From a virus (taxonomy: Duplodnaviria; Caudoviricetes), in IMG/VR virus record IMGVR_UViG_3300009514_000025, positions 1 to 61,657 of that record: a stretch of 61,657 nucleotides of DNA. One strand, written 5' to 3'. Below the pieces are notes generated by a model. The model did no database searches. It was not told where the DNA came from and was given only the letters and a program-made list of their open reading frames with translations. Of this stretch, positions 7,283 to 61,657 are shown in pieces (position 1 is the stretch's first letter; each line of letters opens with the position of its first letter). The translations under genes were made by a program, and so were the position numbers.

Positions 7283-7311
7283 TTGACACAGCTAAAAAAG
7301 TGATATATAAT
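7283..7311 (+). promoter_or_regulatory. Consensus sigma70 promoter for the gp55-gp47-gp46 operon
   Basis: TTGACA (7283-7288), 17 nt spacer, TATAAT (7306-7311). Confidence 0.85.
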
Positions 7312-7332
7312 AACTATTAATTGGAGATAAAA

Positions 7333-7851
7333 ATGGCAAAAGAAGAAGAATTAAAAGCGCCGGCCAAGAAAAAAGTCAACTATATACGAAACAAAGACTT
7401 GCTTGCTGAAGTAATAGCCTGTAAAGAACAGGGTAAAATGTCAAATAAGTTAGCCCGAATGCTTCAATTGCTGACCGCAAAATATGGGCGTTCTTCACAG
7501 TTTGGTGGATACACCTTTAACGAAGATATGCAAGCCTATGCAATGATGATGTTGTGTAAAACATGGGTTGGTTTTAACCCCGAAAGAAGCGATAATGCCT
7601 TTGCTTACTATACCCAAAGCATTAAAAATTCATTCAAACAGTTCTTAAACCGTGAAAAGGTTCAAAGAGTTGTGCGAGATGAACTATTAGTAGATAAGGG
7701 CTTAAACCCATCACATACGTATACAATTGAACATTCTGATGCAGACCATCATTATGTACATGATGAAGAAGATCATCAACAAGTCGTGCAGGATATGAAA
7801 GAAATAAATGAAAATGATAGTTCAGAAGAATTAATTATTTTTAACAAATAA
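7333..7851 (+). CDS. Late-transcription sigma factor, T4 gp55-like
   Basis: NYIRNKDLL...FGGYTFNEDMQAYAM...FNPERSDNAFAYYTQ; sits upstream of gp47/46 as in T4-like phages; GGAG RBS favours the MAKEEE start. Confidence 0.85.
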   Translation: MAKEEELKAPAKKKVNYIRNKDLLAEVIACKEQGKMSNKLARMLQLLTAKYGRSSQFGGYTFNEDMQAYAMMMLCKTWVGFNPERSDNAFAYYTQSIKNSFKQFLNREKVQRVVRDELLVDKGLNPSHTYTIEHSDADHHYVHDEEDHQQVVQDMKEINENDSSEELIIFNK

Positions 7852-7876
7852 CATAATAAAAATAGGAAATAATAAG

Positions 7877-8926
7877 ATGGGTGATACTAAACCCACGCTG
7901 AATAAGGGTGCATTCTTTACAGATTTGCACGTAGGCGCTAAATCTAATTCACAGCAACATAATGAAGATTGTGTCAATTATATTGATTGGTTCTGCGCAA
8001 ACGTAAAGGCAGATCCAACGATTGACTATATTTGTTTCGTGGGGGATTGGCATGAAGTCAGAAGTGCAATTAATGTATTTACTTTGAAGTATTCATATGA
8101 AATTGCTATAAAAATCAATGATTTAGGTCTTCCTGTATATTTTATCATAGGAAACCATGATTTATACCACAGAAATAATAGGGATATTTATTCAGTTATT
8201 CCGTTTCACGAATTTGAAAATTTCACCATTATTGACGAACCTACAGTAATTGACAACATTGCGGATGGTGTGTTAATGTGTCCATTCCTATTCCACGAAG
8301 AATATCCCAAGTTGGTGAAATATAACAAGATTCCATTTTGGGTAGGACATTTTGAATTTAAGGGTTTTGTGGTTACTGGTTATAATATCACCATGAAAAC
8401 TGGTCCAGATCACACGGATTTCAAAGGTCCAGAACATATTATATCTGGACATTTTCATAAACGGCAGACCAGTGGAAACGTAACCTATATAGGGAATGCT
8501 TTTCCAACCAATTTCAGTGATGCGGATGATATTGAACGTGGTATGATGGTTTTTGACCATAAAAAGAAAGATATGGTGTTTTTTGATTGGGCAGAATGTC
8601 CTAAGTATATTAAAAGCTCGCTTTCGGATATTGTGGCAGAAAATATCACATTATACCCTAATGCACGTGTTAGATGCATTGCCGATATTCCCATAACATA
8701 TGAGGAAAGTCTGGAATTGAAGAAAACATTTATAGAAAAATATAATCTTCGTGAATTTTCTATTGAAGAATCCAGTGAAATTAACGAAGCATTATCAGAA
8801 ACTGAAACAAATGTTGATGACAAAGACCTTGGTACTGTTGATGAAATGGTAGTTGAAATGTTGGGAGATATTGAATCTGATCACATTAATAATGAATTAC
8901 TTACAAAGATATACCAAAATTTATAA
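7877..8926 (+). CDS. Recombination nuclease gp47 (Mre11/SbcD-like)
   Basis: Metallophosphoesterase motifs TDLH, GDW, GNHD, GHFH. Confidence 0.92.
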   Translation: MGDTKPTLNKGAFFTDLHVGAKSNSQQHNEDCVNYIDWFCANVKADPTIDYICFVGDWHEVRSAINVFTLKYSYEIAIKINDLGLPVYFIIGNHDLYHRNNRDIYSVIPFHEFENFTIIDEPTVIDNIADGVLMCPFLFHEEYPKLVKYNKIPFWVGHFEFKGFVVTGYNITMKTGPDHTDFKGPEHIISGHFHKRQTSGNVTYIGNAFPTNFSDADDIERGMMVFDHKKKDMVFFDWAECPKYIKSSLSDIVAENITLYPNARVRCIADIPITYEESLELKKTFIEKYNLREFSIEESSEINEALSETETNVDDKDLGTVDEMVVEMLGDIESDHINNELLTKIYQNL

Positions 8927-8952
8927 CATAAAAAACAAAAAATAAAAATGTA

Positions 8953-11900
8953 ATGATTAGGTTTAAACAACTTTCAATTAAAAATTTTCTTTCATACGGT
9001 GAAGCACCAACAGTAATAGACCTTGATGATATTGGTACTACACTGATCGTAGGCGAAGATCTCGACAATACTGCAAGTGGTACTGGCGCTAATGGCGTTG
9101 GTAAAGCACAACCACTCCATTGTAAAATAAAAACTCCTACAGGTTGGACAACGATGGGTGATATTTCTATTGGTGATGTAGTTAGTACACCAGATGGAAA
9201 AACAGCGACCGTAAAAGGTGTATTTCCACAAGGTGTAGTAGAAACATACAAAATATATTTTGCCGATGGTAGAACTACAGAAGCTTGTGGTGAACACCTA
9301 TGGAAAGTTAACAGCCATAGATGGAGAAATGATAAAAAATCAAATGCTTCAAAAATTATCACAACGAAAGAATTGAAACAATGCGTCGATGAAGCAAACA
9401 TCAAAAATAAATCATGGTATAATTGTACCATTCCAATGGTCAATCATCCAGAAGTTCAAGATGTATCTTTGCCTATAGATCCTTATTTGTTAGGAGCTTT
9501 GATTGGCGATGGTACAATATGTTATAGGAATATTAGATTTACATCCAAGGATGATATCATTATTGATGCTGTTTCTAACATATTAAAGGAAGATTTTTCA
9601 CAGGAATTATCTCATGAGAAGGATTACAATTATTATGTTAGAAACACCATTAAAAGAGTTGGATATAATCCAGTGGCTGATATCTTAAATGAATTATCGT
9701 TACTTGGTACTAACTCTCATAATAAATTTATCCCAAAAATATATTTAGATCATGCGAGCAAAGATCAAAAAATTCGACTTTTACAAGGACTGATGGATAC
9801 TGACGGTACTGTAGGTAAAAATGGTGCTGTTACATTTTGTTCCACGAGTAAACAACTAATTGAAGACGTACAATATTTAATTCGTAGTATTGGTGGAAAA
9901 GCCAAGATATCATCAAGAATACCAACATACTCGGATGTTTTTGGTAATAAAATAAATGGAAAACTAGCATATAACCTTTTAATACAGTATGCTTCACCAA
10001 AAGATTTGTTTACTTTACCGCGCAAACAACAGAACATTAATGAAAATTATCAATATGCTAATGCAGGTCTACGTGTTTTACGTGTAGAAAAAATACAAGA
10101 CCAAGAAGCACAATGTATTATGATCGATCATCCAGATCGATTATATGTTACAGATGATTTTATAGTTACGCATAATACTGTGTGGATTAACGCACTTATA
10201 TTCGCATTATATGGTAAACCAATATCTAATATTTCTTTAGACAATCTTATTAATAATATTAATAAGAAAAATATGGAAGTCTCCGTTGAATTTGAAAAAG
10301 ATGGTGAAATTATAACAGTTTCCCGTGGTCGAAAAGTAACGGGTAAGGGCAATTTCGCTAAAATCTTTGTTCGTCCGATGGGTGTTGATTTGGATGAACA
10401 ACTTCATGATGAAACACCTGACAGTATTAAAAATATTACAGACTTCGTTGTCGAAAAACTTAGCATACCATATGAACTGTTTGTTCGTATCGTTGCATTT
10501 GCCGCAACACATACACCGTTTCTTGATTTGCCTGTTAGACATGCTTCACAGGCAAATCAGTCTGATATTATGGAAGAACTGTTTAGATTAACCCAATTAT
10601 CTGTTAAGGCCGAATCTCTTAAAATAGAAATAAGAGATACTAAGCAGAAGTTGGAAATTAAGATTAAACATAATGAACAACTTGAGAAAGAACACGAACG
10701 CCATAATAAATTGCTCGATACTGCGCAAGGCCGTGTTGATGAATGGGAAAAGGAACGCGAAGAAAACATTACAATCATAGAAAAGGAACTTACAAAATAT
10801 AAGGCTGTTCCTGTTAAAGAACAGGAAAAATTATATAAGCGTGTCGATGAGTTAAAGGTTATGCTTGTCAAAGAAAAAGAAAAACAGTCCGAAATTGAAT
10901 CAGTAGTAACAAAAATTAGTGCTGACTATACAATAGTAAAAGCAAATCTAAAGCGCGTTGAAGAAGAAAAAGAAAAGATTTTAACTTGGAAAGAAGAAAA
11001 TACCAAGAAGGTTGCTAGATATAAAGAAGAGGCGGATAGACTACCAAAAGCACATATACTTGATGAACAAACTACTTTACATCAAACATTAAAAGGTTTG
11101 ATGGAAGATTTAGAAACGCTTGTTACAAAAGAAAGCGAAATGAAGTCAACCATTAAGGACACTATTAAAGCTATAAACAAAGCCGAAAAGGAACTAGTTC
11201 ACCTTGAAGATGAAAAATGCCCATATTGCTTACAACAGTATGCGGATGCGACTAATAAGGTTGATGAATGTAGGGAAACCATAAAAATTAAACAACAGGA
11301 AGAAATTGATGGCACTATGCTTTTGGATGTTGTACAGAAAAATATAAAAAAGACGGAAAAAGATATAGAAGCAGTATCAAGTGATATTAAGTATTCAGTA
11401 GATCAAATAAAAGAATATGAACGCTTACGCGCAGATTATATTATAAAATTGGAAGAACTGCTTAATGAAGAATGTCCTCATGGTGATAAAACTTCCGTGG
11501 GTGATATGATTACTATAATTTCCAATCTGAAAAAGGAATCTGCAGCACTTAAAGAAAAACTTTCAGCAGAAGCAGAGGATTTAGTAGAAATAGATGAAGT
11601 GGTAGAAGCACTCTCTAAAGAGTTGGAAAATTGTGAAAATGCTATCGTTATTCCATCATTAAATGAATTATATGAAATCAAAAACAAGATTAAACAATGT
11701 AAAGATAAGGTTAAGGAATTAAACGGTGCGGCAAATCCATATCTTGAACCATTAAAAGAATTGGAAGATATTAAACTTGAACCAATTGATATGGATGCTA
11801 TTAATGAATTGAATAACCTAATAACACACCAAAATTATCTGGTTAAATTACTGACCAAAAAAGATAGTTTTATTAGAAAGACATTATTGAATAAGAACTT

Positions 11901-12315
11901 GGCATTCTTAAATCAGCGATTGAAGCATTACCTAACTGCATTGGGATTACCACATAAGGTTGAATTTACACACGAAATGACTGCGAACATATCACAGTTT
12001 GGTAGGGAACTTGATTTTGGTAACCTATCCAGTGGACAAAAAGCTCGCGTAAACCTTGGTTTGTCGTTCTCATTTAGAGATGTATTACAGAAATCACATG
12101 ACAGTATTAATGTCTGTATGCTTGATGAAGTATTAGATGTGGGACTTGATTCAGTCGGTGTACAAAATGCAGCAAGGATGTTGAAGCGCAAAGCACGAGA
12201 TGAAGACTTAGCGCTATACATCATTTCACATAGGGATGAAGTCAGCAACATCTTTGACAGAAAAATGATAGTACAAATGGAAAAGGGATTTAGTTCAGTG
12301 AAGGTAGAGAATTAA
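8953..12315 (+). CDS. Recombination ATPase gp46 (Rad50/SbcC-like) containing an intein
   Basis: Walker A GANGVGK|T split by an insertion; coiled coil with CPYC zinc hook; LSSGQ signature; MLDE Walker B; ISH. Confidence 0.93.
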   Translation: MIRFKQLSIKNFLSYGEAPTVIDLDDIGTTLIVGEDLDNTASGTGANGVGKAQPLHCKIKTPTGWTTMGDISIGDVVSTPDGKTATVKGVFPQGVVETYKIYFADGRTTEACGEHLWKVNSHRWRNDKKSNASKIITTKELKQCVDEANIKNKSWYNCTIPMVNHPEVQDVSLPIDPYLLGALIGDGTICYRNIRFTSKDDIIIDAVSNILKEDFSQELSHEKDYNYYVRNTIKRVGYNPVADILNELSLLGTNSHNKFIPKIYLDHASKDQKIRLLQGLMDTDGTVGKNGAVTFCSTSKQLIEDVQYLIRSIGGKAKISSRIPTYSDVFGNKINGKLAYNLLIQYASPKDLFTLPRKQQNINENYQYANAGLRVLRVEKIQDQEAQCIMIDHPDRLYVTDDFIVTHNTVWINALIFALYGKPISNISLDNLINNINKKNMEVSVEFEKDGEIITVSRGRKVTGKGNFAKIFVRPMGVDLDEQLHDETPDSIKNITDFVVEKLSIPYELFVRIVAFAATHTPFLDLPVRHASQANQSDIMEELFRLTQLSVKAESLKIEIRDTKQKLEIKIKHNEQLEKEHERHNKLLDTAQGRVDEWEKEREENITIIEKELTKYKAVPVKEQEKLYKRVDELKVMLVKEKEKQSEIESVVTKISADYTIVKANLKRVEEEKEKILTWKEENTKKVARYKEEADRLPKAHILDEQTTLHQTLKGLMEDLETLVTKESEMKSTIKDTIKAINKAEKELVHLEDEKCPYCLQQYADATNKVDECRETIKIKQQEEIDGTMLLDVVQKNIKKTEKDIEAVSSDIKYSVDQIKEYERLRADYIIKLEELLNEECPHGDKTSVGDMITIISNLKKESAALKEKLSAEAEDLVEIDEVVEALSKELENCENAIVIPSLNELYEIKNKIKQCKDKVKELNGAANPYLEPLKELEDIKLEPIDMDAINELNNLITHQNYLVKLLTKKDSFIRKTLLNKNLAFLNQRLKHYLTALGLPHKVEFTHEMTANISQFGRELDFGNLSSGQKARVNLGLSFSFRDVLQKSHDSINVCMLDEVLDVGLDSVGVQNAARMLKRKARDEDLALYIISHRDEVSNIFDRKMIVQMEKGFSSVKVEN
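9106..10176 (+). mobile_element. Class 3 intein (357 aa) with LAGLIDADG homing endonuclease
   Basis: Starts AQPLHCKIKTPTGW, ends IVTHN before +1 Thr; LLGALIGDG and LLQGLMDTDG motifs; W (EHLW), C (AQCI), T (VTHN) triad. Confidence 0.9.
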
Positions 12316-12461
12316 TGGAGGTGATATCTGACTTTACCTTTATGAGCATATCGCTAGTTAGCGATCCCATGGAAGGGATGGAAATAAGAACTTCAATGGA
12401 ATATGATGATGAAAATATCATAGATAAATATGATAAAGCAATGAAACTATTGGAGACATAG
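12315..12461 (+). CDS. 48-aa protein with C-terminal YDKAMKLL tag variant
   Basis: Below the ORF-track cutoff; ATG overlaps the gp46 stop (TAATG) and its TAG abuts the next ATG; MEVISDFTFMSISLVSDPMEGMEIRTSMEYDDENIIDKYDKAMKLLET. Confidence 0.6.
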   Translation: MEVISDFTFMSISLVSDPMEGMEIRTSMEYDDENIIDKYDKAMKLLET

Positions 12462-12809
12462 ATGAACGAACTAGATATTATAAATTACGCTAAAGTAGTA
12501 ATAAAGGATGTAATGACCAGCTTTTTATTTGAACCTGCTGATGAAGTAACCTTCGCATATATGAAGAAATCAATCATCAGTAAAATGGTTAATGACATTG
12601 ACACAGAACTTAATTTCCATGTTGAAGTCGATTTAGAAGATGGCAATCCACGGGTGGTAATGGAACTTTTCAACATTAACGATGAAGAAAGCACAAGGAT
12701 TATTGCACGATATGCAGATTGTCCTGTATTACCAAAAACTGAACAGATATCCGAAGTTAAAAAGGATGAAACCAGTATTGCATTTGAACGAGCAATGGAA
12801 ATTGTATAA
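12462..12809 (+). CDS. Tail-sheath C-terminal-like fragment with AFERAMEIV tag
   Basis: IINYAKVVIKDVMTSFLFEPADEVT aligns with sheath LIKYIKRQLRRNTLSFVFEPNDQLT. Confidence 0.7.
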   Translation: MNELDIINYAKVVIKDVMTSFLFEPADEVTFAYMKKSIISKMVNDIDTELNFHVEVDLEDGNPRVVMELFNINDEESTRIIARYADCPVLPKTEQISEVKKDETSIAFERAMEIV

Positions 12810-13105
12810 TGAATAAGACAATAGATGTTGAAATTTTAGATTTATCTTCACTTACACCAGATGATAATTTTGTACTTATTCGTGTTGACGTTGGGAAAAT
12901 GCCACCACAGCGAGTCCATGACTACGTTATAAAGGTCAAGGAACAATTTGAATTGTGTAAAAAATTAGAAAAAAAGAACATCCAATATTCTGTAATTGGG
13001 TGTCGATCAGATGGTAGACAAGCCGTTGAAGTATCAATTGAATATAAAGACGATGAGCCTGTTTCTACTACAACAGCATTTGATGAAGCAATGGAGATTG
13101 TATGA
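12809..13105 (+). CDS. Portal clip-like fragment with AFDEAMEIV tag
   Basis: DVGKMPPQRV is identical to the portal protein at 21587-21616. Confidence 0.75.
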   Translation: MNKTIDVEILDLSSLTPDDNFVLIRVDVGKMPPQRVHDYVIKVKEQFELCKKLEKKNIQYSVIGCRSDGRQAVEVSIEYKDDEPVSTTTAFDEAMEIV

Positions 13106-13434
13106 AATATTGGAAAGATACAGATATTGAACATATTGAATATGAAGAGGGTGGTTGTACATTACCACATAACAAGCCTGCATCTATTGCAACATCAGAT
13201 ACGATGCGCGTAGAAACGGAAATCATTCCAAATACAGCACAAGTACGTAAATACGTGAACTCATATACGTTTGAAATGGATGAAGGTATGTGTGTTGACG
13301 TTGAACGTAGAATTTGGCGAGGTAATAGCCCTATGCATCTTGAAGTTATTTTTGTTCCTTTATCAGCATTTGGATACGATAAAGAACCAAATAATCATGA
13401 TGTGGCATTTGATGATGCAATGAAAATCATATAA
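13102..13434 (+). CDS. Small protein with weak capsid-like segment and AFDDAMKII tag
   Basis: MRVETEIIPNTAQVRKYVNSYTFEM vs capsid MTMDVVSQSVEAGSRKLQAGWTIEA; ATGA overlap with previous gene. Confidence 0.55.
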   Translation: MKYWKDTDIEHIEYEEGGCTLPHNKPASIATSDTMRVETEIIPNTAQVRKYVNSYTFEMDEGMCVDVERRIWRGNSPMHLEVIFVPLSAFGYDKEPNNHDVAFDDAMKII

Positions 13435-20800: not shown

Positions 20801-22435
20801 ATGACAGCAAAATGGACAGGATATTTTAAGGTTGTAACCCCACAACAGTCAACCACGAAAATGACAGACAGCCAAGAAATGGCTGATGCTGGCGCATATA
20901 ATAATTATACTTGGTATCAACGTTTAATTCAAGGCTCTGCTTCTCGTATGACACGTTATCGTGAATATGATTTAATGGATAATGATATTGAAGTTGCGCG
21001 AGCGCTCGATACAATCGCAGAAGAAATGACAGGAAATAATCCTAAAACAAAAGAACCATTAAAGCTTGATATCTTAACAGAAGACGAAGACAATGTTGAA
21101 AGTGTTGCAGTCTTAACCTTAAAGGCGGCGCTTCGACGTTGGGCACAGATGCATAAGTTTCCAAATCGCCTTTATGGTATCGCCCGTTTAACTATTAAAT
21201 ATGGTGATGTATTTTTTCGTAAAGGCAAAAAATTAAGTGATAAATGGGAATTTATACATCCAAAAAATGTTCTTGCTGCTGTAGTTGACCAGAATGATGC
21301 AACAAAAGTTATGGCATGGCAAATTAAAAAAGATATTGAAAAACCAAGAACAGGTGGTTATTCAATGCCTATTGGTGCAAAACAAGACTCTGCACACGAA
21401 AGCGAAATTATAGATGCGAATGAGATTATTCGTTTCTCTTTAAATGATGATATGGCAGATACACAGCCATTTGGTGAATCTGTTCTTCGCCCAGTTTATC
21501 GTTCACATAAACAAAAAGAACTGTTAGAAGATGCGGTTATCATTTATCGTGTACAGCGTGCACCAGAACGCCGCGTATTTTATATTGATGTTGGTAAGAT
21601 GCCTCCACAACGTGTAAAACAATATTTGGAAGGTATTAAGAACGAAATCAAACAAAAGAAAATTCCAACTATGAATGGTGGTCAAAATGAAGTTGACTCC
21701 GTTTATAATCCACATTCAATGAACGAAGACTTCTTCTTCGCATCGCGTCCAGATGGTCGCGGTTCCCGTGTTGAAACATTACCAGGTGGTCAAGGTCTTG
21801 GTGAATTATCAGATCTCGAATACTTTCAACGTAAAGTATGGCGTGGTTTGAAAGTTCCTGTTTCTTATATGATTGAACAACAGGAAGGTGGACAGATTTG
21901 GAATGATGGTAAAGTAGGCATTGCTTATATTCAAGAATTGCGTTTCTCCTTATATGTTGAAAGATTACAAGGTTATATTGAAGAAGTATTAGACGAAGAA
22001 TTTAAATCATTTTTACGTAAGACGAATATTCGTATTGATGAATCAATGTATCGTATTATGCTTCCAGAGCCTTCTAATTTTGGCAAGTACCGTCAACTTG
22101 AATTGGATAGTCAGTTACTCAGCGCATATACAACACCAGATGGTATTGGTTATATGTCTAAACGCTATGCAATGAAACGCTACTTGCAGATGTCAGATGA
22201 AGAAATCGTTACTAATGAACGTCTTAAACGCGAAGAATTGGGTCTTGATCCAGATGGTGATGATCCTAAAGACCTTCAACAAATTTATGGTGCTGCTGAA
22301 GAAGGTGCCCTCGGCGGCGGTGGTGCCCTTGGCGGCGGATTTGGCGGCGCAGAACTAGGTATGGGTGGCGCAGCTGCCCCAGAAGGTGGGATTGGTGCCG
22401 AAGCACCAGCCGGCGGAGAAGCGCCTCCAGCGTAA
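20801..22435 (+). CDS. Portal protein, gp20-like
   Basis: LLEDAVIIYRVQRAPERRVFYIDVGKMP, EDFFF, VETLPGG, LKVPVS motifs. Confidence 0.95.
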   Translation: MTAKWTGYFKVVTPQQSTTKMTDSQEMADAGAYNNYTWYQRLIQGSASRMTRYREYDLMDNDIEVARALDTIAEEMTGNNPKTKEPLKLDILTEDEDNVESVAVLTLKAALRRWAQMHKFPNRLYGIARLTIKYGDVFFRKGKKLSDKWEFIHPKNVLAAVVDQNDATKVMAWQIKKDIEKPRTGGYSMPIGAKQDSAHESEIIDANEIIRFSLNDDMADTQPFGESVLRPVYRSHKQKELLEDAVIIYRVQRAPERRVFYIDVGKMPPQRVKQYLEGIKNEIKQKKIPTMNGGQNEVDSVYNPHSMNEDFFFASRPDGRGSRVETLPGGQGLGELSDLEYFQRKVWRGLKVPVSYMIEQQEGGQIWNDGKVGIAYIQELRFSLYVERLQGYIEEVLDEEFKSFLRKTNIRIDESMYRIMLPEPSNFGKYRQLELDSQLLSAYTTPDGIGYMSKRYAMKRYLQMSDEEIVTNERLKREELGLDPDGDDPKDLQQIYGAAEEGALGGGGALGGGFGGAELGMGGAAAPEGGIGAEAPAGGEAPPA

Positions 22436-27436: not shown

Positions 27437-30400
27437 ATGTCCGTATTCGATTCTATTGGTGATTCTGCAAACAGTCTAAGAACAGAAGGCCAAGAAATAA
27501 AATTAGCTTTTAAGCAAGGCGTTCCAGCAACTGGTCAAGGTACTATTGAGTGGAATATACCAATTCCCGCCCATGGCTGTGCCTCCGGTGAAACGGGCGT
27601 ATATGCTGGCATTGTGCTTCTTCTTAGCACTGAACCATTAGATGTTTCAAATATTCCACAAGATGGAACAGTATATGTTGGTGATCCAACAGCAGATTTT
27701 GATTTAAGTACAGCAGATCGAATTGGAAATGCAATTGTTGTTGGAGCAATATATGAATGTGAAGAAAAGAATCGTGGCGAAGATTTAACAACTTCTTTAG
27801 TTATTAACGATTTACGGCCAGGCGTTTCGTATTATGTTGGTGGTTATGCTACAGATTGTCAATATCGCTATCATTCAGATGGCATTCGAGCATATTCAGA
27901 TTTTTATGGTGAAAAGGATGGAACAAGCATTCCATCCGCCCAAGTAGTTAATCTTGGCGTTGCTCAGGCCGGCGTTTTACCAACAGATGGAACCGGTCTT
28001 ATTCCTGGTGTTGATTATGAATTCGACTTAATTGTAGATAATTCGTTCCCTACAGGGTATGATTATACTACCATACAAATTACTGTTGCTGGTATTAATG
28101 CTGGTACTTATCAGGATTTATTAGATTCTATTAATACACGAATAAAATTATACGATAATCCTCCACAATCACCAATACCTCCACATACAAATGATTTTTA
28201 TTGGAATGCAACGGAAGAACAGCTTTATCAATATGATGGCGCAGCATATAATGCAATAGAAACCATGAATGAACCTACCGATCCTGCTAATATAGCGATG
28301 GGTACATATTGGTATGATACAACAAATAAAATTTTAAATCGTAATAATATTCCAAATCCAACAGGTTGGAATATTATTAATCATCTTGAAAGCGAATCAG
28401 ATCCTGCTAATCCTGCATGTACATTATATTGGTATGATAATATTGTTGCACGTAAATGGGATGGTTCCACCTGGTGTGATCAAACAACAGCATTTTCATT
28501 AACTGATCCAAGTGTTTGTCCAACCGTCGAATGCGGGACATATTGGTATGATGAAAACACATCAGCATTATTTGGTTGGGATGATATAAACGAAAGATGG
28601 CAAGAAAGAACTGCTATATATTGGCCGCAGGCTCCAGATCAATTATCGGATGGAACATATTGGTTCGATGATACAAACAATAACCTGTTCCGCCGATCCG
28701 CATCTACATGGGTAGATATTACCATTACATCAAAAGTTCAAGAAACTGAACCTACGACAGCGGCTAATGGTTTGGTATGGTATAAGCCTTCCACAGAAGA
28801 ATTAAAAGTATATTCTACTGGTTCACCAATTGGATGGATTAATACTGATGTATTGGTGTGGAATGAAGATCCAACAAATACTACATCATGTGACTTATGG
28901 TGGAATTCAACTAATGATGAATTAAGAACATGGGATATTGTTAATAATGAATGGGATCTAGTTGTTAGATTTGTTATTTCAACATTAGATCCTACACAAC
29001 CATCACCATTGGCAGTTGATACACTTTGGTATGAACCTACTGCTGCAACGTTAAAACGTTGGGATGGTGGCGATTGGGTTGATGTAGAACATGTAGAAAA
29101 AATTACAGATCCGACACAAATCAGTGTTGGTGAAGCATGGTATAATCCAGTAGCAGATGAATGGAAAATTTGGAATACACCAACAGCAGGCTGGAATGAT
29201 ATAAATCCAATTGATTCGGATGTTGATCCTAATAGTATTCCAAACGGAACTTATTGGTTTGACACAACTAATGTTGCATTATATGTTCGTAATGGTGTTG
29301 TTTGGTCTTCAGTAACATTTTCTACTGTTCCATTTGTTCCTGCAAGAAATAGTTTATGGTATGATACTTTAAATAAAATATTAAAAGAATGGAATGGTAC
29401 TACATGGGTTACATCTACACCTATAGCTGTTGCCTATTTTAATTCATCTGGTGGTATAACTTTTGAAACTATACAAAAAGGTAGTGATACTGCGATATTA
29501 ATTCCAGCACCACCAGGTTCTTCTTCGGAACCATCTATTGTTGGCACTGGTTTTGCTGACTTTACAGAATTTGACATTAATCCTGTAACTGGATATACAT
29601 ATGAACGTGGCACCATCGGAAGAGTTTATCCAGCAAGATATATCAATGATAACGATTTCTTATGGAGTAGTTTGTCGCCTGCTCCAGGAAAACTTGCAAT
29701 ACCAGATGCGGGCAATGATGGCAAGTCTGGACTTCCTTCATATGCTGAACTTGGCGTTGGCGATGATGGAACACCAGATGAACGTCGTGAATTAATGGAC
29801 AGTATTCGTGCACAGCTTGGTTATCCTGTTGTTGATGTTGAATTAACAAATTATCAATTAGATACTGCTATTCAAGGCGCACTTGAATCATTTAGAAAGC
29901 GTGCAGGTTCAGCGTATCGTAGAGGATTCTATTTCTTAGACATAGAACCAGGAAAACAACAGTACTTAATGACAAATAAGGTAATGGGATATAATAAAAT
30001 TGTTTCTATTACAGCAGCATATCGTTTTACGTCTGCGTTTTTATCATCAGCGCATGGTTCTGGTGTTTATGGTCAAGTAGTATTACAGCACTTATATAAC
30101 ATGGGCACATTTGATTTAACAAGTTTTCATTTAGTATCACAATACATTGAACAACTTGAACATTTATTTTCAACAAGATTGGGACATACGTTCCATGAAC
30201 ATAATCGTGTTCTTACATTTTTTAATTCATTTACACGAAATGAGCGTGTTTTATTAGACTGTATGATCGAAAGAACAGAACAAGATTTACTTAAAGATCG
30301 TTTTATCAAAACATGGATTGAACGTTATGCATTATCAGAAGCAATGATGATGCTTTCACATATTCGTGGTAAATTTGCTTCATTGCCAGGCGCGGGAGGC

Positions 30401-30535
30401 GGCATATCATTAAATGCAGGCGAATTAATTGCAACTGCACAATCTTATCGTGAAGAATTATTAAATCAGATCGATGAATTTATTGTTGACACACCAGAAG
30501 ACGTGGGTCAATATTCAACATTTATTTTAGGTTAA
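27437..30535 (+). CDS. Neck protein gp13-like with a large N-terminal Trp-repeat extension
   Basis: C-terminal LGYPVVDVELTNYQLD...IRGKFASLPGAGGGISLN; about ten W(Y/F/W)(D/N) repeats upstream; TATAAATA at 27402. Confidence 0.8.
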   Translation: MSVFDSIGDSANSLRTEGQEIKLAFKQGVPATGQGTIEWNIPIPAHGCASGETGVYAGIVLLLSTEPLDVSNIPQDGTVYVGDPTADFDLSTADRIGNAIVVGAIYECEEKNRGEDLTTSLVINDLRPGVSYYVGGYATDCQYRYHSDGIRAYSDFYGEKDGTSIPSAQVVNLGVAQAGVLPTDGTGLIPGVDYEFDLIVDNSFPTGYDYTTIQITVAGINAGTYQDLLDSINTRIKLYDNPPQSPIPPHTNDFYWNATEEQLYQYDGAAYNAIETMNEPTDPANIAMGTYWYDTTNKILNRNNIPNPTGWNIINHLESESDPANPACTLYWYDNIVARKWDGSTWCDQTTAFSLTDPSVCPTVECGTYWYDENTSALFGWDDINERWQERTAIYWPQAPDQLSDGTYWFDDTNNNLFRRSASTWVDITITSKVQETEPTTAANGLVWYKPSTEELKVYSTGSPIGWINTDVLVWNEDPTNTTSCDLWWNSTNDELRTWDIVNNEWDLVVRFVISTLDPTQPSPLAVDTLWYEPTAATLKRWDGGDWVDVEHVEKITDPTQISVGEAWYNPVADEWKIWNTPTAGWNDINPIDSDVDPNSIPNGTYWFDTTNVALYVRNGVVWSSVTFSTVPFVPARNSLWYDTLNKILKEWNGTTWVTSTPIAVAYFNSSGGITFETIQKGSDTAILIPAPPGSSSEPSIVGTGFADFTEFDINPVTGYTYERGTIGRVYPARYINDNDFLWSSLSPAPGKLAIPDAGNDGKSGLPSYAELGVGDDGTPDERRELMDSIRAQLGYPVVDVELTNYQLDTAIQGALESFRKRAGSAYRRGFYFLDIEPGKQQYLMTNKVMGYNKIVSITAAYRFTSAFLSSAHGSGVYGQVVLQHLYNMGTFDLTSFHLVSQYIEQLEHLFSTRLGHTFHEHNRVLTFFNSFTRNERVLLDCMIERTEQDLLKDRFIKTWIERYALSEAMMMLSHIRGKFASLPGAGGGISLNAGELIATAQSYREELLNQIDEFIVDTPEDVGQYSTFILG

Positions 30536-38006: not shown

Positions 38007-38945
38007 ATGGATATAAAAACTAAAGAATTTATTAAAAAATCTAAAAAATATCATGGGGAACGTTATGATTATTCTGAAACAATATACGTTCATTCCATGC
38101 AAAAATTAAAAATTCGTTGTACTATACACGGAATATTTGAACTTACACCTAATAATCATTTATCGGGAAGGCAAGGCTGTCAAAAATGTTCTGGTAAATA
38201 CAAACCCAATACAGAAGAATTTATTAAAAAAGCCAGAGAAGTTCACGGTAGTAAATATGAATATGTCCATACAAAATACGGTAAAAATAATCGTACTAAG
38301 GTTATAGTGGGATGTTCCACACATGGTGAATTTCAAATAACTCCTGCTAACCATATTAGTGGTAAAGAAGGATGTCCTGAATGTGCTAAGAAGAAATATG
38401 GTGCATATCATAAAAAGAATACAACACAATTTATAAAAGAATCCAAAATAATTCATGCAGGTAAATATGATTATTCTTTGGTAGAATATACAGGAACGCA
38501 CGATAAAGTTAAGATTATATGTAATATACATGGAACATTTAACCAACGCCCATCATCACATTTACGCGGCGTGGGTTGCCCCAAATGTTCACATATTGAT
38601 TATTGTGGTGGATATGGTAAGAAGCGATTTATAAATCATCCAGAAATTAAAAATAATCCTGCTATATTATATTTAATATATGTAACAGATGAAACTGAAA
38701 ATTTTTTAAAAATAGGAATTACAGAGAAAGATCTTAATACGAGATTTATTAAAAATAATAAGTTGCCTTATACTTTTACTACAAAAATAATAATCGAAGG
38801 AAAATTATACGAATTGTATGAGCTTGAACAAAGAATTAAACATAAATATAAAAAATATAAGTATATTCCAAATAAGAAATTTAATGGATATACGGAATGT
38901 TTTGCTACTAAATGCGCAGACATGTTGTGTGAGGAATTAAAATGA
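38007..38945 (+). CDS. Free-standing putative homing endonuclease (three zinc-ribbon repeats plus GIY-YIG-like domain)
   Basis: Three EFI..HG..Y.Y..C..HG.F..P..H..GC..C repeats; C-terminal LYLI..FLKIGIT..E..GYTECF; very AT-rich. Confidence 0.7.
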   Translation: MDIKTKEFIKKSKKYHGERYDYSETIYVHSMQKLKIRCTIHGIFELTPNNHLSGRQGCQKCSGKYKPNTEEFIKKAREVHGSKYEYVHTKYGKNNRTKVIVGCSTHGEFQITPANHISGKEGCPECAKKKYGAYHKKNTTQFIKESKIIHAGKYDYSLVEYTGTHDKVKIICNIHGTFNQRPSSHLRGVGCPKCSHIDYCGGYGKKRFINHPEIKNNPAILYLIYVTDETENFLKIGITEKDLNTRFIKNNKLPYTFTTKIIIEGKLYELYELEQRIKHKYKKYKYIPNKKFNGYTECFATKCADMLCEELK

Positions 38946-39385
38946 GCACTGAAACGAAAGAAATAGAAGTAGCAATTGAACATCCATTAGAAGAGATATT
39001 CGATGTGGAAGCAGGTACGACTCTTATGCCTCGTACCGAAAAAACTACTGAACTGGTAGCATCAGAAGAGTACGATAACAAAGACAAAGAAATCGAAAAC
39101 CAGTTTCAAGAAGTTTATGATGCTGCACTTTCTGCGTTTGAAGATCAAGTTGCTGAAGCAGAAGTTATTGAGGGGAAGTATAAAGCCCGTAACATGGAAG
39201 TTGGTGTTCAATTATTGAATACTGCCTTGGCAGCAGCAAAAGAAAAATCTGGCTTAAAACAACACAAAGATAAAACAGCTATTGCTAAAGGTAAGCTAGG
39301 AGTAAAAACGACCAACAATACGTTGATTATTGCTGATCGTAATGACATCTTAAGAACAATGATGGGTAATAAAAAAGAAGATTAA
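38942..39385 (+). CDS. Terminase small subunit, gp16-like
   Basis: Helical 147 aa, ARNMEVG.QLL..AL, C-terminal NNTLIIADRNDIL; upstream of the large subunit. Confidence 0.7.
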   Translation: MSTETKEIEVAIEHPLEEIFDVEAGTTLMPRTEKTTELVASEEYDNKDKEIENQFQEVYDAALSAFEDQVAEAEVIEGKYKARNMEVGVQLLNTALAAAKEKSGLKQHKDKTAIAKGKLGVKTTNNTLIIADRNDILRTMMGNKKED

Positions 39386-40692
39386 TCCAATATTTCCATT
39401 GCCACTTCAAAAGCATCAGTAACATTTTCCATCAAATCTACTTCTTTTGTTTCTTCTTTCTTAATTTTTAATTTATTTAACTTTGGTAAATTATCAAATG
39501 TTATTTCAACATAATAATCGCACGGTTCTTTTGTGATTGTAGTTAATGAACCATCTTTTGTAGTGTCTACTTCTTGTTTTTGATTGACATATTTACCATA
39601 ACGACTCATAAATTTAATAACAGGCGCAAATGTATTAGGGTCAATAATAACGCCCGTAGTCATCAATGGGATATATGGTGCATAGAAGTATCCTGCATCT
39701 ATTTCACCATTTCCGCCTTTATAACCAACTATGGCTTTATCTTGCTTAAGACCATAGTCACAGTATATTTTGATCATATCATTCCACGTTCCAAGATATT
39801 TAACATAACCATAATCTTTATCCGTTTCTGATGTTTTTACGAATTTTTTACTATTTTTTAAAATTTCAGCAATTGTTTCGGAAACGATTGCAAAATTGCC
39901 TGCACCTCTTCGGGTTCTTTGTGCAATTCTATTTGCGGCACGATTAATAAGAAATTCGATAGTTTGAATTACATCGTTTGTAATACACATATCATCAGCC
40001 AAATTTTTTGACATATCAAAAGTTTCTTTATGAGCGACAGCACAGATATCATTTCTGATTTCTTCATATATTTCTTGTGCAATTTCATTGCCATAATCTC
40101 TGTCATCTGGAATACCAGTTCCAGATATGTCTTGTTGGGCGACAATCTCCATATTAAGTTTTAATTTTCTACTACTTGCTTCTAATGCAGCTGAATTAAT
40201 TTCAAGGCTTAGTCTTGTTTCTTGATCTTCACCAATTGTATTAACTTTTTCCGTTTTATATTGTAACAAATAAATTAACCCAACTGGACCAGTCATTGGT
40301 TGAATACCAACAAAATGTTTAGCAACTTGTTGATCTATCATGCGTTCTGCAAGAGATTTAAGTATATGATCTTGTGAAATTGTATGTATTGAACTATTGT
40401 TGTGAGCATTGACACTACTGATATGATTTTTCATATTTTCCATCAATGATTGTTTAACCTTATCTACGGATTCAATAGTTGGTGATTCTTTTGTTAAATC
40501 AGCAACGGATAAGACTGTTTCTTCTTCTGAAGATGTGAATCCCGTTTCAGGTACGATATCTTCTAATTCTTTAATGAGTTCACTAAATGTAAACGATTTT
40601 TTTGTCTTTGTCACAATTGAATTTTTATCTTTAGCGCGCAAATCAGCAGCCGGATCTTCCAGCATCATTTTTTTCATTTTTTCGATATCCAT
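39382..40692 (-). CDS. Major capsid protein paralog with AFEVAMEILD C-terminal tag
   Basis: VGIQPMTGPVGLIY, SSRKLK, ANRIAQRTRRGAGNF, VGYKGGNGEIDAGYFYAPYIPL, MSRYGK. Confidence 0.85.
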   Translation of the reverse strand: MDIEKMKKMMLEDPAADLRAKDKNSIVTKTKKSFTFSELIKELEDIVPETGFTSSEEETVLSVADLTKESPTIESVDKVKQSLMENMKNHISSVNAHNNSSIHTISQDHILKSLAERMIDQQVAKHFVGIQPMTGPVGLIYLLQYKTEKVNTIGEDQETRLSLEINSAALEASSRKLKLNMEIVAQQDISGTGIPDDRDYGNEIAQEIYEEIRNDICAVAHKETFDMSKNLADDMCITNDVIQTIEFLINRAANRIAQRTRRGAGNFAIVSETIAEILKNSKKFVKTSETDKDYGYVKYLGTWNDMIKIYCDYGLKQDKAIVGYKGGNGEIDAGYFYAPYIPLMTTGVIIDPNTFAPVIKFMSRYGKYVNQKQEVDTTKDGSLTTITKEPCDYYVEITFDNLPKLNKLKIKKEETKEVDLMENVTDAFEVAMEILD

Positions 40693-40816: not shown

Positions 40817-42373
40817 ATGGCGCGCGCAAAGAATAATAACCTAAAGAAACCTGGACAGGAACTTGAATATACACATGAACAGGTGATGGAATTGAAGCGC
40901 TGTGCAGAAGATCCAATCTATTTTATAAAAAAATATGTACAGATTCAACATCCAACAAGAGGCGCTATACCATTTGACCTTTATTCTTATCAGGAAAAAA
41001 TGATAAGGGCATATCAAGATAACCGTTATACGGTTGTTCTTTCTGCACGCCAAACAGGTAAATCTGTTACATCCGCTGCATATCTTCTTTGGTATGCAAT
41101 GTTTCATTTTGATAAAACTATTTTGATTGCATCTAATAAAAACGCAAATGCAATGGAAATGATTCTGCGTATTAGATTCGCGTATGAAAATCTTCCTTTC
41201 TGGTTGAAACCTGGCGTTAAAGACGATGGTTGGAATAAGCACGAAATTGGTTTTGATAATGGTTCTCGTATTGTGTCAACTGCAACATCAGAAGATTCTG
41301 GTCGTGGTATGGCTATTTCACTTTTATTCCTTGATGAATTTGCATTCGTAAAACATGCTATTCAAGATGAATTTTGGACATCTATTGCACCTACATTATC
41401 AACGGGTGGTTCATGTATAATGACATCCACTCCAAATGGTGATATGAACATATACGCACAAGTTTGGCGTGGTTCACAAATGGGTACAAATGGATTTTAT
41501 CCTATACATGTTAAGTGGGATGAGCCACCAGATCGTGATAGCAAATTTAAAGAAGCGGAAATTGGAAGAATCGGTGAAAGACGCTGGCAACAAGAATATG
41601 AATGTGTATTTTTATCATCCGATTCGCTGTTGATCGATTCTTTATTCTTAACAAATATTTCATCAACAATTGAAAAGATCGTTCCTAAGCTTACAGTAAA
41701 TGATGTTGTTTTATTTGAAGATATAAAACCGATGACAACCTATTTGCTTGGAGTTGATCCTGCAACCGGCAATGGTGAAGATTTTAGTGTTATAAGTATA
41801 TATGAATTTCCATCAATGGTTCAAGTTGGCGAATATCGTTCTAATACTATGTCAACAAATGATTTATATGGTGTTATGAAAAATATTCTAAAACACATGG
41901 AATCGAAAGGTGCCATGGTATATTTCTCAATAGAAAATAATGGTGTTGGTCAGGGACTGATCGCATTATATGAAGCAGATGAAGATCCTTTGAACACGGT
42001 TGAATTTATTTCCGAAGATGGTAGAAATAAATTAGGATTTACCACGACTGCTCGTAGTAAAATGCGTGCATGTGTTAACCTGAAGGAAATGCTTGAGAAA
42101 TCTAATATGCATATTCGTTCCAAAATTCTTTTATCTGAATTGAAATCTTATGTTCGACATCGTGGCGCATATGCAGCGCAACCAGGTGCCACAGATGATT
42201 GTATTGCTGCAACACTTATTGTACTTAGACTGGTAGAAGAAATTGCATCATATGAACAAGCTGCTTTTGATAAGCTATATTCTGGTGACTATGATGAATG
42301 GGACTCGTCAGAGTGGGATGGTTATGAAGAAGGTTACGATGATAACGATGAAGGAATGCCAATTTTATTTTAA
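40817..42373 (+). CDS. Terminase large subunit, gp17-like
   Basis: ARQTGKS Walker A, LFLDEFAF Walker B, TSTPNG, GVDPATG, DDCI. Confidence 0.95.
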   Translation: MARAKNNNLKKPGQELEYTHEQVMELKRCAEDPIYFIKKYVQIQHPTRGAIPFDLYSYQEKMIRAYQDNRYTVVLSARQTGKSVTSAAYLLWYAMFHFDKTILIASNKNANAMEMILRIRFAYENLPFWLKPGVKDDGWNKHEIGFDNGSRIVSTATSEDSGRGMAISLLFLDEFAFVKHAIQDEFWTSIAPTLSTGGSCIMTSTPNGDMNIYAQVWRGSQMGTNGFYPIHVKWDEPPDRDSKFKEAEIGRIGERRWQQEYECVFLSSDSLLIDSLFLTNISSTIEKIVPKLTVNDVVLFEDIKPMTTYLLGVDPATGNGEDFSVISIYEFPSMVQVGEYRSNTMSTNDLYGVMKNILKHMESKGAMVYFSIENNGVGQGLIALYEADEDPLNTVEFISEDGRNKLGFTTTARSKMRACVNLKEMLEKSNMHIRSKILLSELKSYVRHRGAYAAQPGATDDCIAATLIVLRLVEEIASYEQAAFDKLYSGDYDEWDSSEWDGYEEGYDDNDEGMPILF

Positions 42374-51524: not shown

Positions 51525-54500
51525 ATGGCAGATAAATTACCAATTAAGGCAAAGTGGTCAGGTGGATCGCCAGATGATGTTATTGCTTTACAAGAATTTC
51601 AATCGACTGATACTATAGCCCTTAATTATCTCTCTGGCGGTGCATCGCCTTCTGAAGGCCATGTACTTACTTGGGGCGGTAGCCCATTGGGATGGATTAC
51701 AGCTGCCCCAGATCTTGGCGCTAATAACTTAGATGACTTATTAGATGTTTTCATTACAGGAGCAGGTTCACCAGAAGTACCAGCAGACAATGAAGTTCTT
51801 GCTTATGATAGTAGTTCTGGTAATTGGATTAATCAAACCGCATCCGAAGCTGGGTTATCTATAGTAGGCCACACACATACCTTAAATGAACTTAGTAATG
51901 TATATGTATCTGCTGGTTCACCAGAAATAACAATAGGTTATGTGCTTACTTATGGTGGTAGTCCTTTGGGTTGGTATGCAATTGCGCCCGCTGTCGGAAT
52001 AGATGCGTTAGATGATTTAACAAACGTTACCATTGCATCTGTTACATCAGGCGAAATTTTAGTATATCAGGGATCACCAGCCGAATGGCAAAATAATACA
52101 TTGGCAGAAGCAGGCATTAGTGCTATAGGCCATACACACGCAATGGTTGATATCACAGATTCAACGTGGATTAGTGATATTACAAGTGAAAATCTTGAAG
52201 ATTTAAACAACGTTTCATTAACAGGTTCACCACAACCAGTATCAGGTGATTTATTAAGATGGAACGGTTCAACGTGGATCAATTATCCAGATAGTAATTT
52301 TTCATCATCTGGTCATAATCATACTAAATCTGATATTACAGATTTTACCGAAAGCGATTATGTTCATACTACCGGCACTGAAACTGTTGGTGGTAATAAA
52401 ACATTTAGTAATGATATTATAATTTCGGGTGATCTTACTGTTAATGGTACTACAACTACCATTAATACAACTACACTTGAAATCGGCGATAACATTTATC
52501 TTCTCAATGCAGACATGGATGATGGTAGTCCAATTCCTGCACCTACACAAGATGCTGGTTTTGAAGTCGAGCGTGGTATAGTTGATAATGTGTCTTGGCT
52601 TTGGGATGAAACTGTCGATACGTTTAGACCTAAATTAGGAACAGGTGAAGCATATTTAGGATATGTATTAGATCCTACTAATGATAACCATATTGGTGAT
52701 CGTGGGTATAACGATTTAAGATATTCTAATATAAGTCATGCACACGCAATAAATGAGTTAAGTGATGCTACTATAACTTCACTTACAGCAGGCGAAGTAT
52801 TAATTTCTGCGGGTTCACCACTTGGTTGGATTAACCAAACATTAGCTGAAGCAGGCATCTCATCTGATTCACATACACACATTATAAATGATTTAACAGA
52901 TATAACTATTGCATCTGTTACATCTGGTGAAATTCTTGTCTATCAAGGTTCTCCAGCCGAATGGCAGAACAATACATTAGCAGAAGCAGGTATTAGTGCT
53001 GTTGGTCATACACATGTTATGGTTGATATTACAGATTCAACATGGATCAGTGATATTACAAATGAACCAATTGCCGACCTTAGTGATGTGACAATTAATG
53101 CTGTCGGGTCAGGCGAAGTCCTTGTTTATCAGGGTTCACCAGCCGAATGGCAAAATAACACATTAGCAGAAGCGGGAATTTCTGCGATTGGTCATACGCA
53201 TGTCATGGTTGATATTACTGATTCAACTTGGATTAGTGATATTACAGCAGAACCTATTGCCGATCTTAGTGATGTTACTGTTGCTTCTCTTGGTGCAGGT
53301 GAAATATTAGTTGCTGTCGGATCACCGCTTACATGGATTAATCAAACATTAGCAGAAGCAGGTATTGCATCTGATTCACATACACATATAGTTAATGATT
53401 TAACAGATGTAACTATTGCATCTGTCGGGTCAGGCGAAGTCCTTGTTTATCAGGGTTCACCAGCCGAATGGCAAAATAACACATTAGCAGAAGCGGGAAT
53501 TTCTGCAACAGGCCACACACATGTGATGGTAGACATTACTGATAGTACTTGGATTAGTGATATAACAGCAGAATCATTGGATGATCTTAGTGATGTTTAT
53601 ACGCCAGCCCCACAAGTAGGTGAATTGCTTACTTACGGTGGTAGTCCGTTGGGTTGGTATGCGGCCGCACCCGCTGGTGGAGTAGATGCATTAGATGATT
53701 TAACCGATGTAGTAATTACAGGTTCGGTAGGTTCACCATTAACTCCCGCTGATAATGAGTTGCTTGCTTTTGATATTGGTTCAGGTAATTGGATTAATCA
53801 AACAGCAGCACAAGCAGGGTTATCTGTAACTGGTCATACACATGTTATGGTTGATATTACTGATAGTACTTGGATTAGTGATATTACAGGAGAACCTATT
53901 GGTGATCTTAACGACGTTACAGTTACATCACTTACATCAGGTGAAGTATTACTTTCCAGTGGTTCACCACTTGGATGGATAAATGCAACGCTCGCAGAAG
54001 CAGGCATATCTGCAACTGGCCATACCCATGTTATGGTTGATATTACAGATTCTACATGGATTAGTGATATAACAGCCGAAAATATTGAAGACTTAAACAA
54101 TGTTTCATTAACAGGTTCCCCAGCGCCAGTATCTGGGGATTTATTAAGATGGAACGGTTCAACATGGACAAACTATCCAGATAGTAATTTCTCATCGTCT
54201 GGTCATACACATGTCAAGGCGAATATTACAGACTTCACTGAATCTGACTATGTTCACACGACGGGTGTTGAAACTGTTGGTGGTAATAAAACCTTTAGTA
54301 ATAATATAATTATCTCTGGTGACTTAACAGTTAACGGTACAACGACTTCTATTAATACTACCACACTTGAAATAGAAGATAATATTTATCTTCTTAATTC
54401 AGGAATGGTAGGAAGTCCTCTTGTTGCTCCTACACAAGACGCTGGCTTCGAAGTCGCCCGTGGTACAGCTACAAACGTATCATGGTTGTGGGATGAAACT

Positions 54501-57365: not shown

Positions 57366-57368
57366 TAG

Positions 57369-61264: not shown

Positions 61265-61275
61265 GGAAAATAATT

Positions 61276-61657
61276 ATGCCTAATTATATTGACATTATCG
61301 GAACATACTTTCCTTCTATGGATGCATATTCCACCGGAGATCCAACTGACTATAATACTATAGTTTTTAATGGTTCACCAATACTTTCACAAAGTACATT
61401 GGATGCTTATGCTACACAACTTGAAACTGAAGCACCAGTAGTAAATGGTGATCATCTTATTATTGTAGAAGATAATCCAGGTGATGGGGAAATTTTGTCA
61501 TATGATTTTACAAGTAAAAAATTTGCACATAATACATTAGCAGAAGCGGGAATTTCTACAACAGGACACACACATACAGAATCTGATATTACAGATTTAC
61601 AGTCATATCTACTTGATATTACATCTGAACCATTAAGTGATCTTAGTGATGTAACTA
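61276..61657 (+). CDS. Fibre-associated protein (MPNY family), truncated by the window end
   Basis: MPNYIDIIGTYFPSMDAYSTGDPTDYNTIVFNGSPILSQSTLDA...TLAEAGIS..HTH. Confidence 0.75.
   Translation, partial: MPNYIDIIGTYFPSMDAYSTGDPTDYNTIVFNGSPILSQSTLDAYATQLETEAPVVNGDHLIIVEDNPGDGEILSYDFTSKKFAHNTLAEAGISTTGHTHTESDITDLQSYLLDITSEPLSDLSDVT

Follow-up and report, generated by a model that had tools for sequence, protein, structure and literature searches.

A tagged small protein derived from the portal clip of a T4-type phage and its possible role as a trigger decoy

The window analysed here, that is, the whole 61,657-base viral record IMGVR_UViG_3300009514_000025 (estimated to be 18% complete), encodes a 98-residue protein at 12809..13105 (+ strand) that is a free-standing derivative of the clip of the T4-type portal protein encoded further downstream. 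This mini-protein, whose open reading frame (ORF) begins with an ATG overlapping the stop of the ORF before it, has no PHROG or Pfam family assigned to it. It combines a decapeptide identical to the tip of the portal clip with a C-terminal tag that recurs on proteins with unrelated bodies. We tentatively propose, at a probability of about 0.4, that it is a soluble mimic of the clip tip, with a host immune receptor that senses the portal as its most likely target, for which it would serve as a trigger decoy.

Descent from the portal clip

The portal of the window (20801..22435, + strand) is a gp20 homologue of 544 residues that is recognised by Pfam PF07230 (E 8.7e-93) and phrog_213 (E 4.9e-98) and matches the solved T4-type portals 3ja7, 6uzc and 9lu6 with E about 3e-34. 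Its closest cultured counterparts come from the jumbo phages Xoo-sp13 and XacN1 (52% identity), followed by RAS14/CM1, RsoM2USA and PA5oct. The decapeptide DVGKMPPQRV occupies residues 263-272 of this portal (21587..21616, + strand; GATGTTGGTAAGATGCCTCCACAACGTGTA) and is found again, in frame, as residues 27-36 of the mini-protein (12887..12916, + strand; GACGTTGGGAAAATGCCACCACAGCGAGTC). A prior sequence-only reading had reported that all ten amino acids agree while seven of the ten codons differ, and translating both stretches confirms it; the seven nucleotide differences all fall on third codon positions. Through the portal alignment the decapeptide corresponds to D288-A297 of T4 gp20 (DTGNMPARKA in the aligned chain). 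In the part of PMC4493910 drawn on here, the gp20 clip is given as residues 279-358 and as exposed outside the capsid. The earlier assignment of the peptide to the clip region is hence correct and can be made more pointed, in that the peptide is the clip tip itself.

Independent draws from the codon usage of the window would be expected to give 4.7 +/- 1.45 unlike codons, as against the seven observed. The synonymous sites of the two copies are thus fully randomised, with no nucleotide-level signal remaining, and the peptide can be neither a recent copy nor the product of recent gene conversion from the portal; of the nine variable codons, seven differ. The mini-gene copy uses rarer codons, such as GAC, GGG, CGA and GTC (16%, 3%, 10% and 8% of their respective synonymous sets) and also CAG, while the portal copy is mostly built from the commonest codons of each set. 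The rare codons would fit either a lower expression of the mini-gene or a different history.

The likeness reaches past the ten residues. A BLASTP comparison of the mini-protein with the portal gives 13 identities over 26 positions (E 2e-6), and a six-frame search of the whole record with the mini-protein yields, besides the query itself, nothing but the portal (E 1.5e-4). By our own arithmetic, which assumes typical residue frequencies and approximately 20,000 coded residues, the chance of an exact 10-residue match is of the order of 1e-9. Two orthologues of the mini-protein were found, namely P0004, with 75% identity on a 1.2-kb contig, and L033:2730-3026, with 44% identity, which lies within a 363.5-kb record estimated to be complete (G010). 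An exhaustive profile search with the mini family returned 44 proteins at E <= 0.001, of which we kept the 37 small ones (80-212 residues), leading to a mini alignment of 40 rows. The other seven, proteins of 857 to 4,652 residues, were dropped; the two of them that were inspected (P0005 and P0040) match as repeats that score only 5-10 bits each, by way of a strand-turn-strand pattern.

Profile-profile comparison of the 40 minis with 32 portals (hhalign) gave a probability of 95.9 and an E-value of 5.6e-9 over 25 columns, pairing mini residues 24-48 (12878..12952, + strand) with portal residues 260-284, a segment that comprises a strand, the GKMPP loop and a helix. When the window's own protein was left out of the profile, portals still ranked next after the family members. 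The family profile also recovered the portal gene in seven of ten related viral records (E 8e-8 to 1.4e-6) and in four of five cultured jumbo phages. In the reverse direction, a hidden Markov model (HMM) of the 32 portals had its best match site in the clip for 37 of the 40 minis, 24 of them at E <= 0.01.

The longer family members retain more of the portal and align to it across about 95-110 residues. For instance, P0023 aligns to portal residues 259-355 (BLASTP, E 1e-11) and scores 21.7 bits on PF07230, where the cut-off is 22.9; P0019 shows two aligned blocks and passes that cut-off with 25.4 bits. They further share an LCxxL...IxY block with the rest of the family that portals are without. 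The window mini-protein itself has no match to PF07230 even at E <= 10 and scores 13.8 bits against our portal HMM. Of its 98 residues only 24-48 align to the portal, and the full portal architecture of wing, stem, clip and crown in some 500 residues is absent. Since portal profiles match the family and its longer members keep more of the portal, the clip-mini family is one lineage descended from a partial portal copy, of which the window version has lost the distal part. By the same comparisons, the mini-protein is to be classified as a derived fragment of the Portal_T4 family and not as a portal. The initial view of an old, portal-derived duplication is upheld by the randomised synonymous sites, the profile-profile match and the alignment of long members to portal residues 259-355.

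Conservation, distribution and expression context

In the 40-row alignment the consensus reads V.I.VDVGKMPP.R...YL, and the only nearly invariant columns are M1, G29, M31 and L53. Within the tip, G is kept in 36 members, K in 24 (with R in a further five), M in 37, the first and second P in 31 and 30, respectively, and R in 24, the Q position being free. A tyrosine three residues past the decapeptide is kept in 33 of the 40. Column by column, the core of the tip (G, K, M, P, P, R) emerges as the best conserved part of the family. Two members, P0018 and P0046, keep ten and nine of the ten residues of the portal peptide, with an overall identity of only 30-40%; members whose tips deviate include P0016, P0020, P0024 and P0039. 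In portals of the clade the tip is almost invariant, being exact in 33 of 40 portals found by pattern.

An AlphaFold2 model of the mini-protein built from the 40-row alignment has an overall pLDDT of 73.3, with values of 88-90 for the strand-loop-helix block. It predicts strands at residues 5-11 and 20-27, a loop at 28-32 that holds the GKMPP tip, helices at 33-46 and 48-55 and a strand at 59-65; past these elements the model is of low confidence. The local strand, loop and helix of the model agree with the secondary structure of the portal clip tip.

Between the window and G010, the mini-gene shows a dN of 0.51 and a dS of about 1.5, the latter saturated, so that the ratio of about 0.33 is rough, coming from the one orthologue with DNA; the portal gene shows a dN of 0.067 and a dS of about 1.1. 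These values indicate purifying selection on the mini-gene that is far weaker than on the portal, allowing for the roughness of the ratio. The proposal of selection at the protein level thus stands in part: purifying selection and the nearly invariant G29 and M31 support it, whereas selection for an exact match to the portal is not supported. That the gene is not recent debris, as had also been suggested, agrees with its intact ORF, with about 37 further small homologues in metagenomes and with the same rough dN/dS.

The gene is present in the window and in the complete relative G010 and was not found in G001 (estimated 90% complete), G003 (estimated 100% complete), six further partial records and five cultured jumbo phages. 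Because it is present in G010 and absent from relatives including G001 and G003, it is an accessory gene. Searches of viral contigs with the single mini-protein gave no further loci, and locus searches with P0023 and P0024 found none. One metagenome scan brought up nothing beyond the record of the known relative, a tblastn search of 50,697 cultured-phage records had no match at E <= 0.01, and the ESM Atlas gave no usable match for the mini-protein. The ten family members that were looked up lie on contigs of 1.1-12.6 kb that carry no portal.

The mini-gene belongs to four overlapping or abutting small ORFs (12315-13434) located directly 3' of a gp46-like gene. All genes from 7321 to 13434 are on the + strand and closely packed, the small ORFs from 12315 on overlapping or abutting. 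A sigma-70 promoter-like site at 7283..7311 (+ strand), in which TTGACA, a 17-base spacer and TATAAT agree with the consensus at 12 of 12 positions, precedes gp55, which is followed by gp47, gp46 and the mini-gene array. The T4 late-promoter consensus TATAAATA has seven matches in the window; they are confined to the structural-gene stretch from 22461 to 47951, and none falls between 7000 and 15000. Since the sigma-70 site precedes gp55 and the late-promoter consensus is absent from the region, early expression is likely, and judging from these consensus matches the mini-gene is probably part of an early operon behind gp55, gp47 and gp46.

A shared C-terminal tag and a mosaic of virion pieces

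The mini-protein ends in the tag AFDEAMEIV (residues 90-98; 13076..13102, + strand), a match to the pattern [FY][DE]xAMx[IV][ILV], which occurs strictly at the C-terminus; it also fits the looser form by which the C-terminally tagged small proteins of this clade are defined, [FY][DEN]xAMx[ILVM][ILVM] within 0-3 residues of that terminus. We scanned the window and 65 related loci (654,608 residues in 8,024 ORFs of at least 30 residues) with the strict motif [AK][FY][DE]xAMx[ILVM][ILVM] and obtained 15 occurrences, all 15 of which end 0-2 residues from the C-terminus. In G010 the motif occurs 12 times in 3,238 ORFs, always 0-2 residues from the C-terminus and never internally, and the tag is carried by 11 distinct proteins. 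Among the clip minis, 23 of 40 carry the strict tag and most others a degenerate form. The carriers further include the four tandem small ORFs of the window, the mini-gene among them, and syntenic small ORFs with unrelated bodies in relatives.

One of the G010 carriers is a mosaic of 435 residues (L114:14298-15602, equivalent to G010 223295-224602, - strand). It corresponds over residues 188-289 to the C-terminal 106 residues of the window's tail sheath (E 6e-24), over residues 286-330 to a conserved peptide of the capsid protein (the DTGYFYAPYIP region; E 2e-7) and over residues 336-432 to residues 307-390 of the window portal (E 1e-20), after which the tag follows. The portal piece runs from the distal clip strand through the channel loop into the start of stem helix alpha7, so that the half of the clip missing from the mini-protein is present in the mosaic. 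Going by these matches, tagged proteins displaying conserved pieces of virion proteins exist in this clade.

The tag can also be found on a capsid-like protein. The window encodes a gp24-like paralogue of the major capsid protein (39382..40692, - strand; 436 residues; phrog_138 E 2.3e-52; Pfam Gp23 E 2.5e-55) with a C-terminal extension of about 35 residues that ends in DAFEVAMEILD (39385-39414), and the tag is kept in its G010 orthologue (L079) as DAFESAMKILD. This gene sits between the small and large terminase genes on the opposite strand.

Two readings of the tag gained no support. One is that it copies a portal helix: BLAST and Pfam alignments extend as far as the residues that precede the tag, and the portal HMM does not align the tag itself. 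The other, suggested by T4 biology, is that of a clamp-binding tail; the C-terminus of gp55 in the window is unlike the tag.

Tagged small proteins with unrelated bodies form tandem arrays 5-10 kb upstream of the portal, and related loci with the tag include L004, L005, L013, L018, L032, L033, L054 and L061. In the window the array opens with a 48-residue ORF (12315..12461, + strand) that has the tag-like tail KYDKAMKLLET. It is followed by a 115-residue ORF (12462..12809, + strand) with the tail AFERAMEIV, whose N-terminus contains an FLFEPxD region that is kept in the L033 and L004 relatives; in L004 and L005 this module is fused behind a further 190 residues. Its N-terminus also resembles sheath residues 489-524 (BLASTP E 0.024; hhalign E 0.004 with a probability of 8%), and a profile of it recovered no sheath in five genomes. 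Whether this ORF copies the sheath C-terminus is thus a weak lead that is not established. After the mini-gene comes a 110-residue ORF (13102..13434, + strand) with the tail AFDDAMKII and an orthologue of 46% identity at L033:2401-2730. That it copies the gp15-like protein was rejected (BLASTP E 2.5; no profile match in five genomes; hhalign aligning another region with a probability of 3%), and this ORF has no supported likeness to any virion protein. The mini-gene takes third place among the four tagged genes of the window and comes last among the three of L033 (compare 12462-13434 with L033:2036-3026), and this unlike gene order points to an array that is rearranging.

The wider gene content of the window is that of a T4-type phage, with a gp55-like sigma factor, gp47/gp46-like nuclease, RuvC-like resolvase, helicase, baseplate and hub proteins, portal, prohead protease, major capsid protein, sheath, tube, and small and large terminase. 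The gp46-like SbcC/Rad50 protein that precedes the array (8953-12315, + strand; 1,120 residues) has an insert at approximately residues 44-433 that matches terminase, primase and helicase-loader PHROG families, the SbcC similarity returning at residue 412; this arrangement suggests an intein. A probable homing endonuclease is encoded by an HNH/endonuclease gene (38007-38945, + strand; phrog_681, phrog_559) that has the head-closure gene on one side and the small terminase on the other. From 51525 to 61656 (+ strand) there are extensive protein repeats, both within and between genes, including those of a 1,946-residue protein and the tail-fibre-like genes after it; these have many heptapeptides in common, for example in the TLAEAGISATGH and DFTESDYVHTTG blocks.

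The decoy reading, its rivals and known systems

In the reading that we favour, the mini-protein retains the strand, GKMPP loop and helix of the outermost tip of the portal and, being encoded in a probable early operon, would be made ahead of the real portal. As a soluble protein it could then compete with the portal by filling the site of a protein that recognises the tip. The most likely such protein would be a host immune receptor that senses the portal, making the mini-protein a trigger decoy that belongs to a group of proteins with a C-terminal tag, which putatively display conserved virion pieces. Portals are sensed by Avs4, Avs11, SpbK and RAZR, and the portions of the literature that we draw on describe Avs sensors as binding monomers at conserved interfaces. 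We rank a host portal sensor first among potential targets because of the accessory distribution of the gene, its fast evolution, its early context, the G010 mosaic, the sensing of portals by several defences and the precedent of DSAD1. Patchy presence together with a dN well above that of the portal is as expected for counter-defence genes.

A wider version of the decoy reading, which we regard as speculative and rather unlikely, is that of a counter-defence system of early tagged virion pieces (portal clip, capsid and sheath, singly or as a mosaic) that would bait host pattern-recognition receptors for the core phage proteome, with the tag handing the receptor or the bait to a shared partner. 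Such a partner might be a protease or a sequestering factor, or else the capsid, which would deliver its load to the next cell.

Several points weigh against the decoy reading. The sequence-only reading had the decapeptide kept identical under selection to match the portal, and in this it does not hold: the two nearest orthologues each match it at five of ten positions (DIGKMPAIHA in P0004 and NIGAMPPKRA in L033:2730-3026), the 39 other family members have a mean identity of 5.9 of ten, and the portal of the L033/G010 phage still reads DVGKMPPQRV though the tip of its mini-protein has changed. Half-changed tips in the nearest orthologues are odd for an exact portal copy. The family was moreover collected with a profile containing the motif, which inflates the apparent conservation of the tip. 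No binding partner came out of any result of this analysis, and the literature portions covered give no contact site for a sensor on the portal. They describe Avs sensors as using extended, shape-complementary interfaces, which an element of 25 residues may not satisfy. A Foldseek search of the mini-protein model against the PDB had no match at E <= 0.001, and VIA-align 2 over 48,161 chains gave a best Z of 6.0 to OsmC-like folds, with no portal listed. The promoter evidence consists only of consensus matching, and the role of the tag is unexplained.

The best placed of the rivals, which we consider possible if on the whole unlikely, is that the mini-protein regulates or competes in packaging or head completion, with the free clip tip binding the large terminase (40817..42373, + strand; PHROG terminase families, best E 7.2e-88) or the gp13-like neck protein (27437-30535) as candidate partners. 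It would thereby delay or tune the packaging of its own phage, or disturb the machinery of co-infecting related phages or satellites. This explanation has the best residue-level rationale, which comes from T4. As described in the part of PMC4493910 used here, the gp20 clip is the attachment site for gp17 and later for gp13 and the tail, its tip residues N291, M292, R295 and K296 probably contact gp17 according to modelling, alanine substitutions of these abolish packaging, and M292I is cold-sensitive for packaging initiation; the equivalents in the mini-protein are K30, M31, Q34 and R35. The region D279-A316 of gp20 is likewise cited as terminase-interacting in the text used of PMC10893049 (citing Lin et al. 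1999), and in that of PMC9958956 gp13 is also bound by the clip. The terminase is highly conserved in the clade (87% identity), so that the portal tip and the mini tip could be under one common constraint. However, close relatives with an identical portal tip are without the gene, which is hence no core factor of assembly; its probable early operon sets it apart from the terminase and neck genes, which are among the late-promoter genes; a phage making a mimic of its own portal would be inhibiting its own packaging; and the sheath and capsid pieces of the mosaic are left unexplained. Complex predictions of the large terminase with the mini-protein (alignments of 40 sequences each) scored 0.00 in two runs and are evidence neither way.

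A second rival, which we find doubtful, takes the strand, loop and helix as a scaffold kept for folding without any mimicry, the function residing in the tag or in the second half with the LCxxL...IxY block. The AlphaFold2 model is indeed a generic two-layer alpha/beta fold whose best fold matches are the OsmC-like ones, half of the tip residues are changed in the nearest orthologues, and some conserved family features, such as L53 and C50, are absent from portals. Against this, the columns of highest conservation in the family fall within the tip (G29, M31 and the P-P-x-R pattern), P0018 and P0046 keep the portal peptide nearly or wholly intact in otherwise divergent proteins, and further portal blocks are kept in the long members.

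To a third possibility, that of an assembly holdase, we give little credit. Here, the tagged fragments would cap the oligomerisation interfaces of newly made portal, sheath and capsid subunits against premature polymerisation, with the tag serving their release or removal. The sheath C-terminal domain, the capsid peptide and the clip with the channel loop, all of which are copied in the G010 mosaic, are regions of subunit contact, a point in its favour; but a patchy distribution and probable early expression are ill-suited to a general assembly factor. Finally, that the likeness arose by chance or is what a decaying portal duplication left behind, an idea favoured only by the lack of exact identity in the nearest orthologues, is very improbable and already refuted by the BLASTP and profile-profile E-values, ORFs intact in about 40 sequence clusters, a dN/dS below 1 and nearly invariant tip columns.

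In the literature searched, which consisted of main texts mostly from outside the subscription journals, neither stand-alone clip proteins nor this tag were found described. The mini-protein shares with the clip of T4-type gp20 (PF07230; PDB 3JA7, 6UZC and 9LU6) its strand, its G-[KN]-M-P loop and its helix, and in the long family members the likeness extends to the distal clip strand, the channel loop and the beginning of helix alpha7. Unlike a T4-type portal, it is a separate gene for 98 residues without wing, stem or crown, and it has an N-terminal strand of its own, a family-specific second helix and strand, and the C-terminal tag. According to the consulted part of PMC13581612, bacteria sense the greater part of the core phage proteome, with the portal among the proteins sensed, and it is largely an open question how phages whose core proteins cannot change evade this. 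If the decoy reading is true, tagged copies of the clip tip along with the sheath-capsid-portal mosaic would provide a directly testable answer to this question; should the target prove to be the terminase or the neck protein instead, these proteins would amount to natural competitive inhibitors of DNA packaging. The portal-recognising Avs4, Avs11, SpbK and RAZR are candidate targets in this context, being host proteins and not relatives of the mini-protein. The closest parallel in function would be DSAD1 of SPbeta-like phages, which, in the sections of PMC10973363 relied on here, mimics the tail tube and fills the trigger pocket of DSR2. The two differ in that the binding of DSAD1 has been demonstrated structurally whereas the mini-protein is a sequence-level copy of a piece of its own phage's portal. 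Like DSAD1, it resembles a virion protein known to trigger defence, and that it may act in the same mode is our working model.

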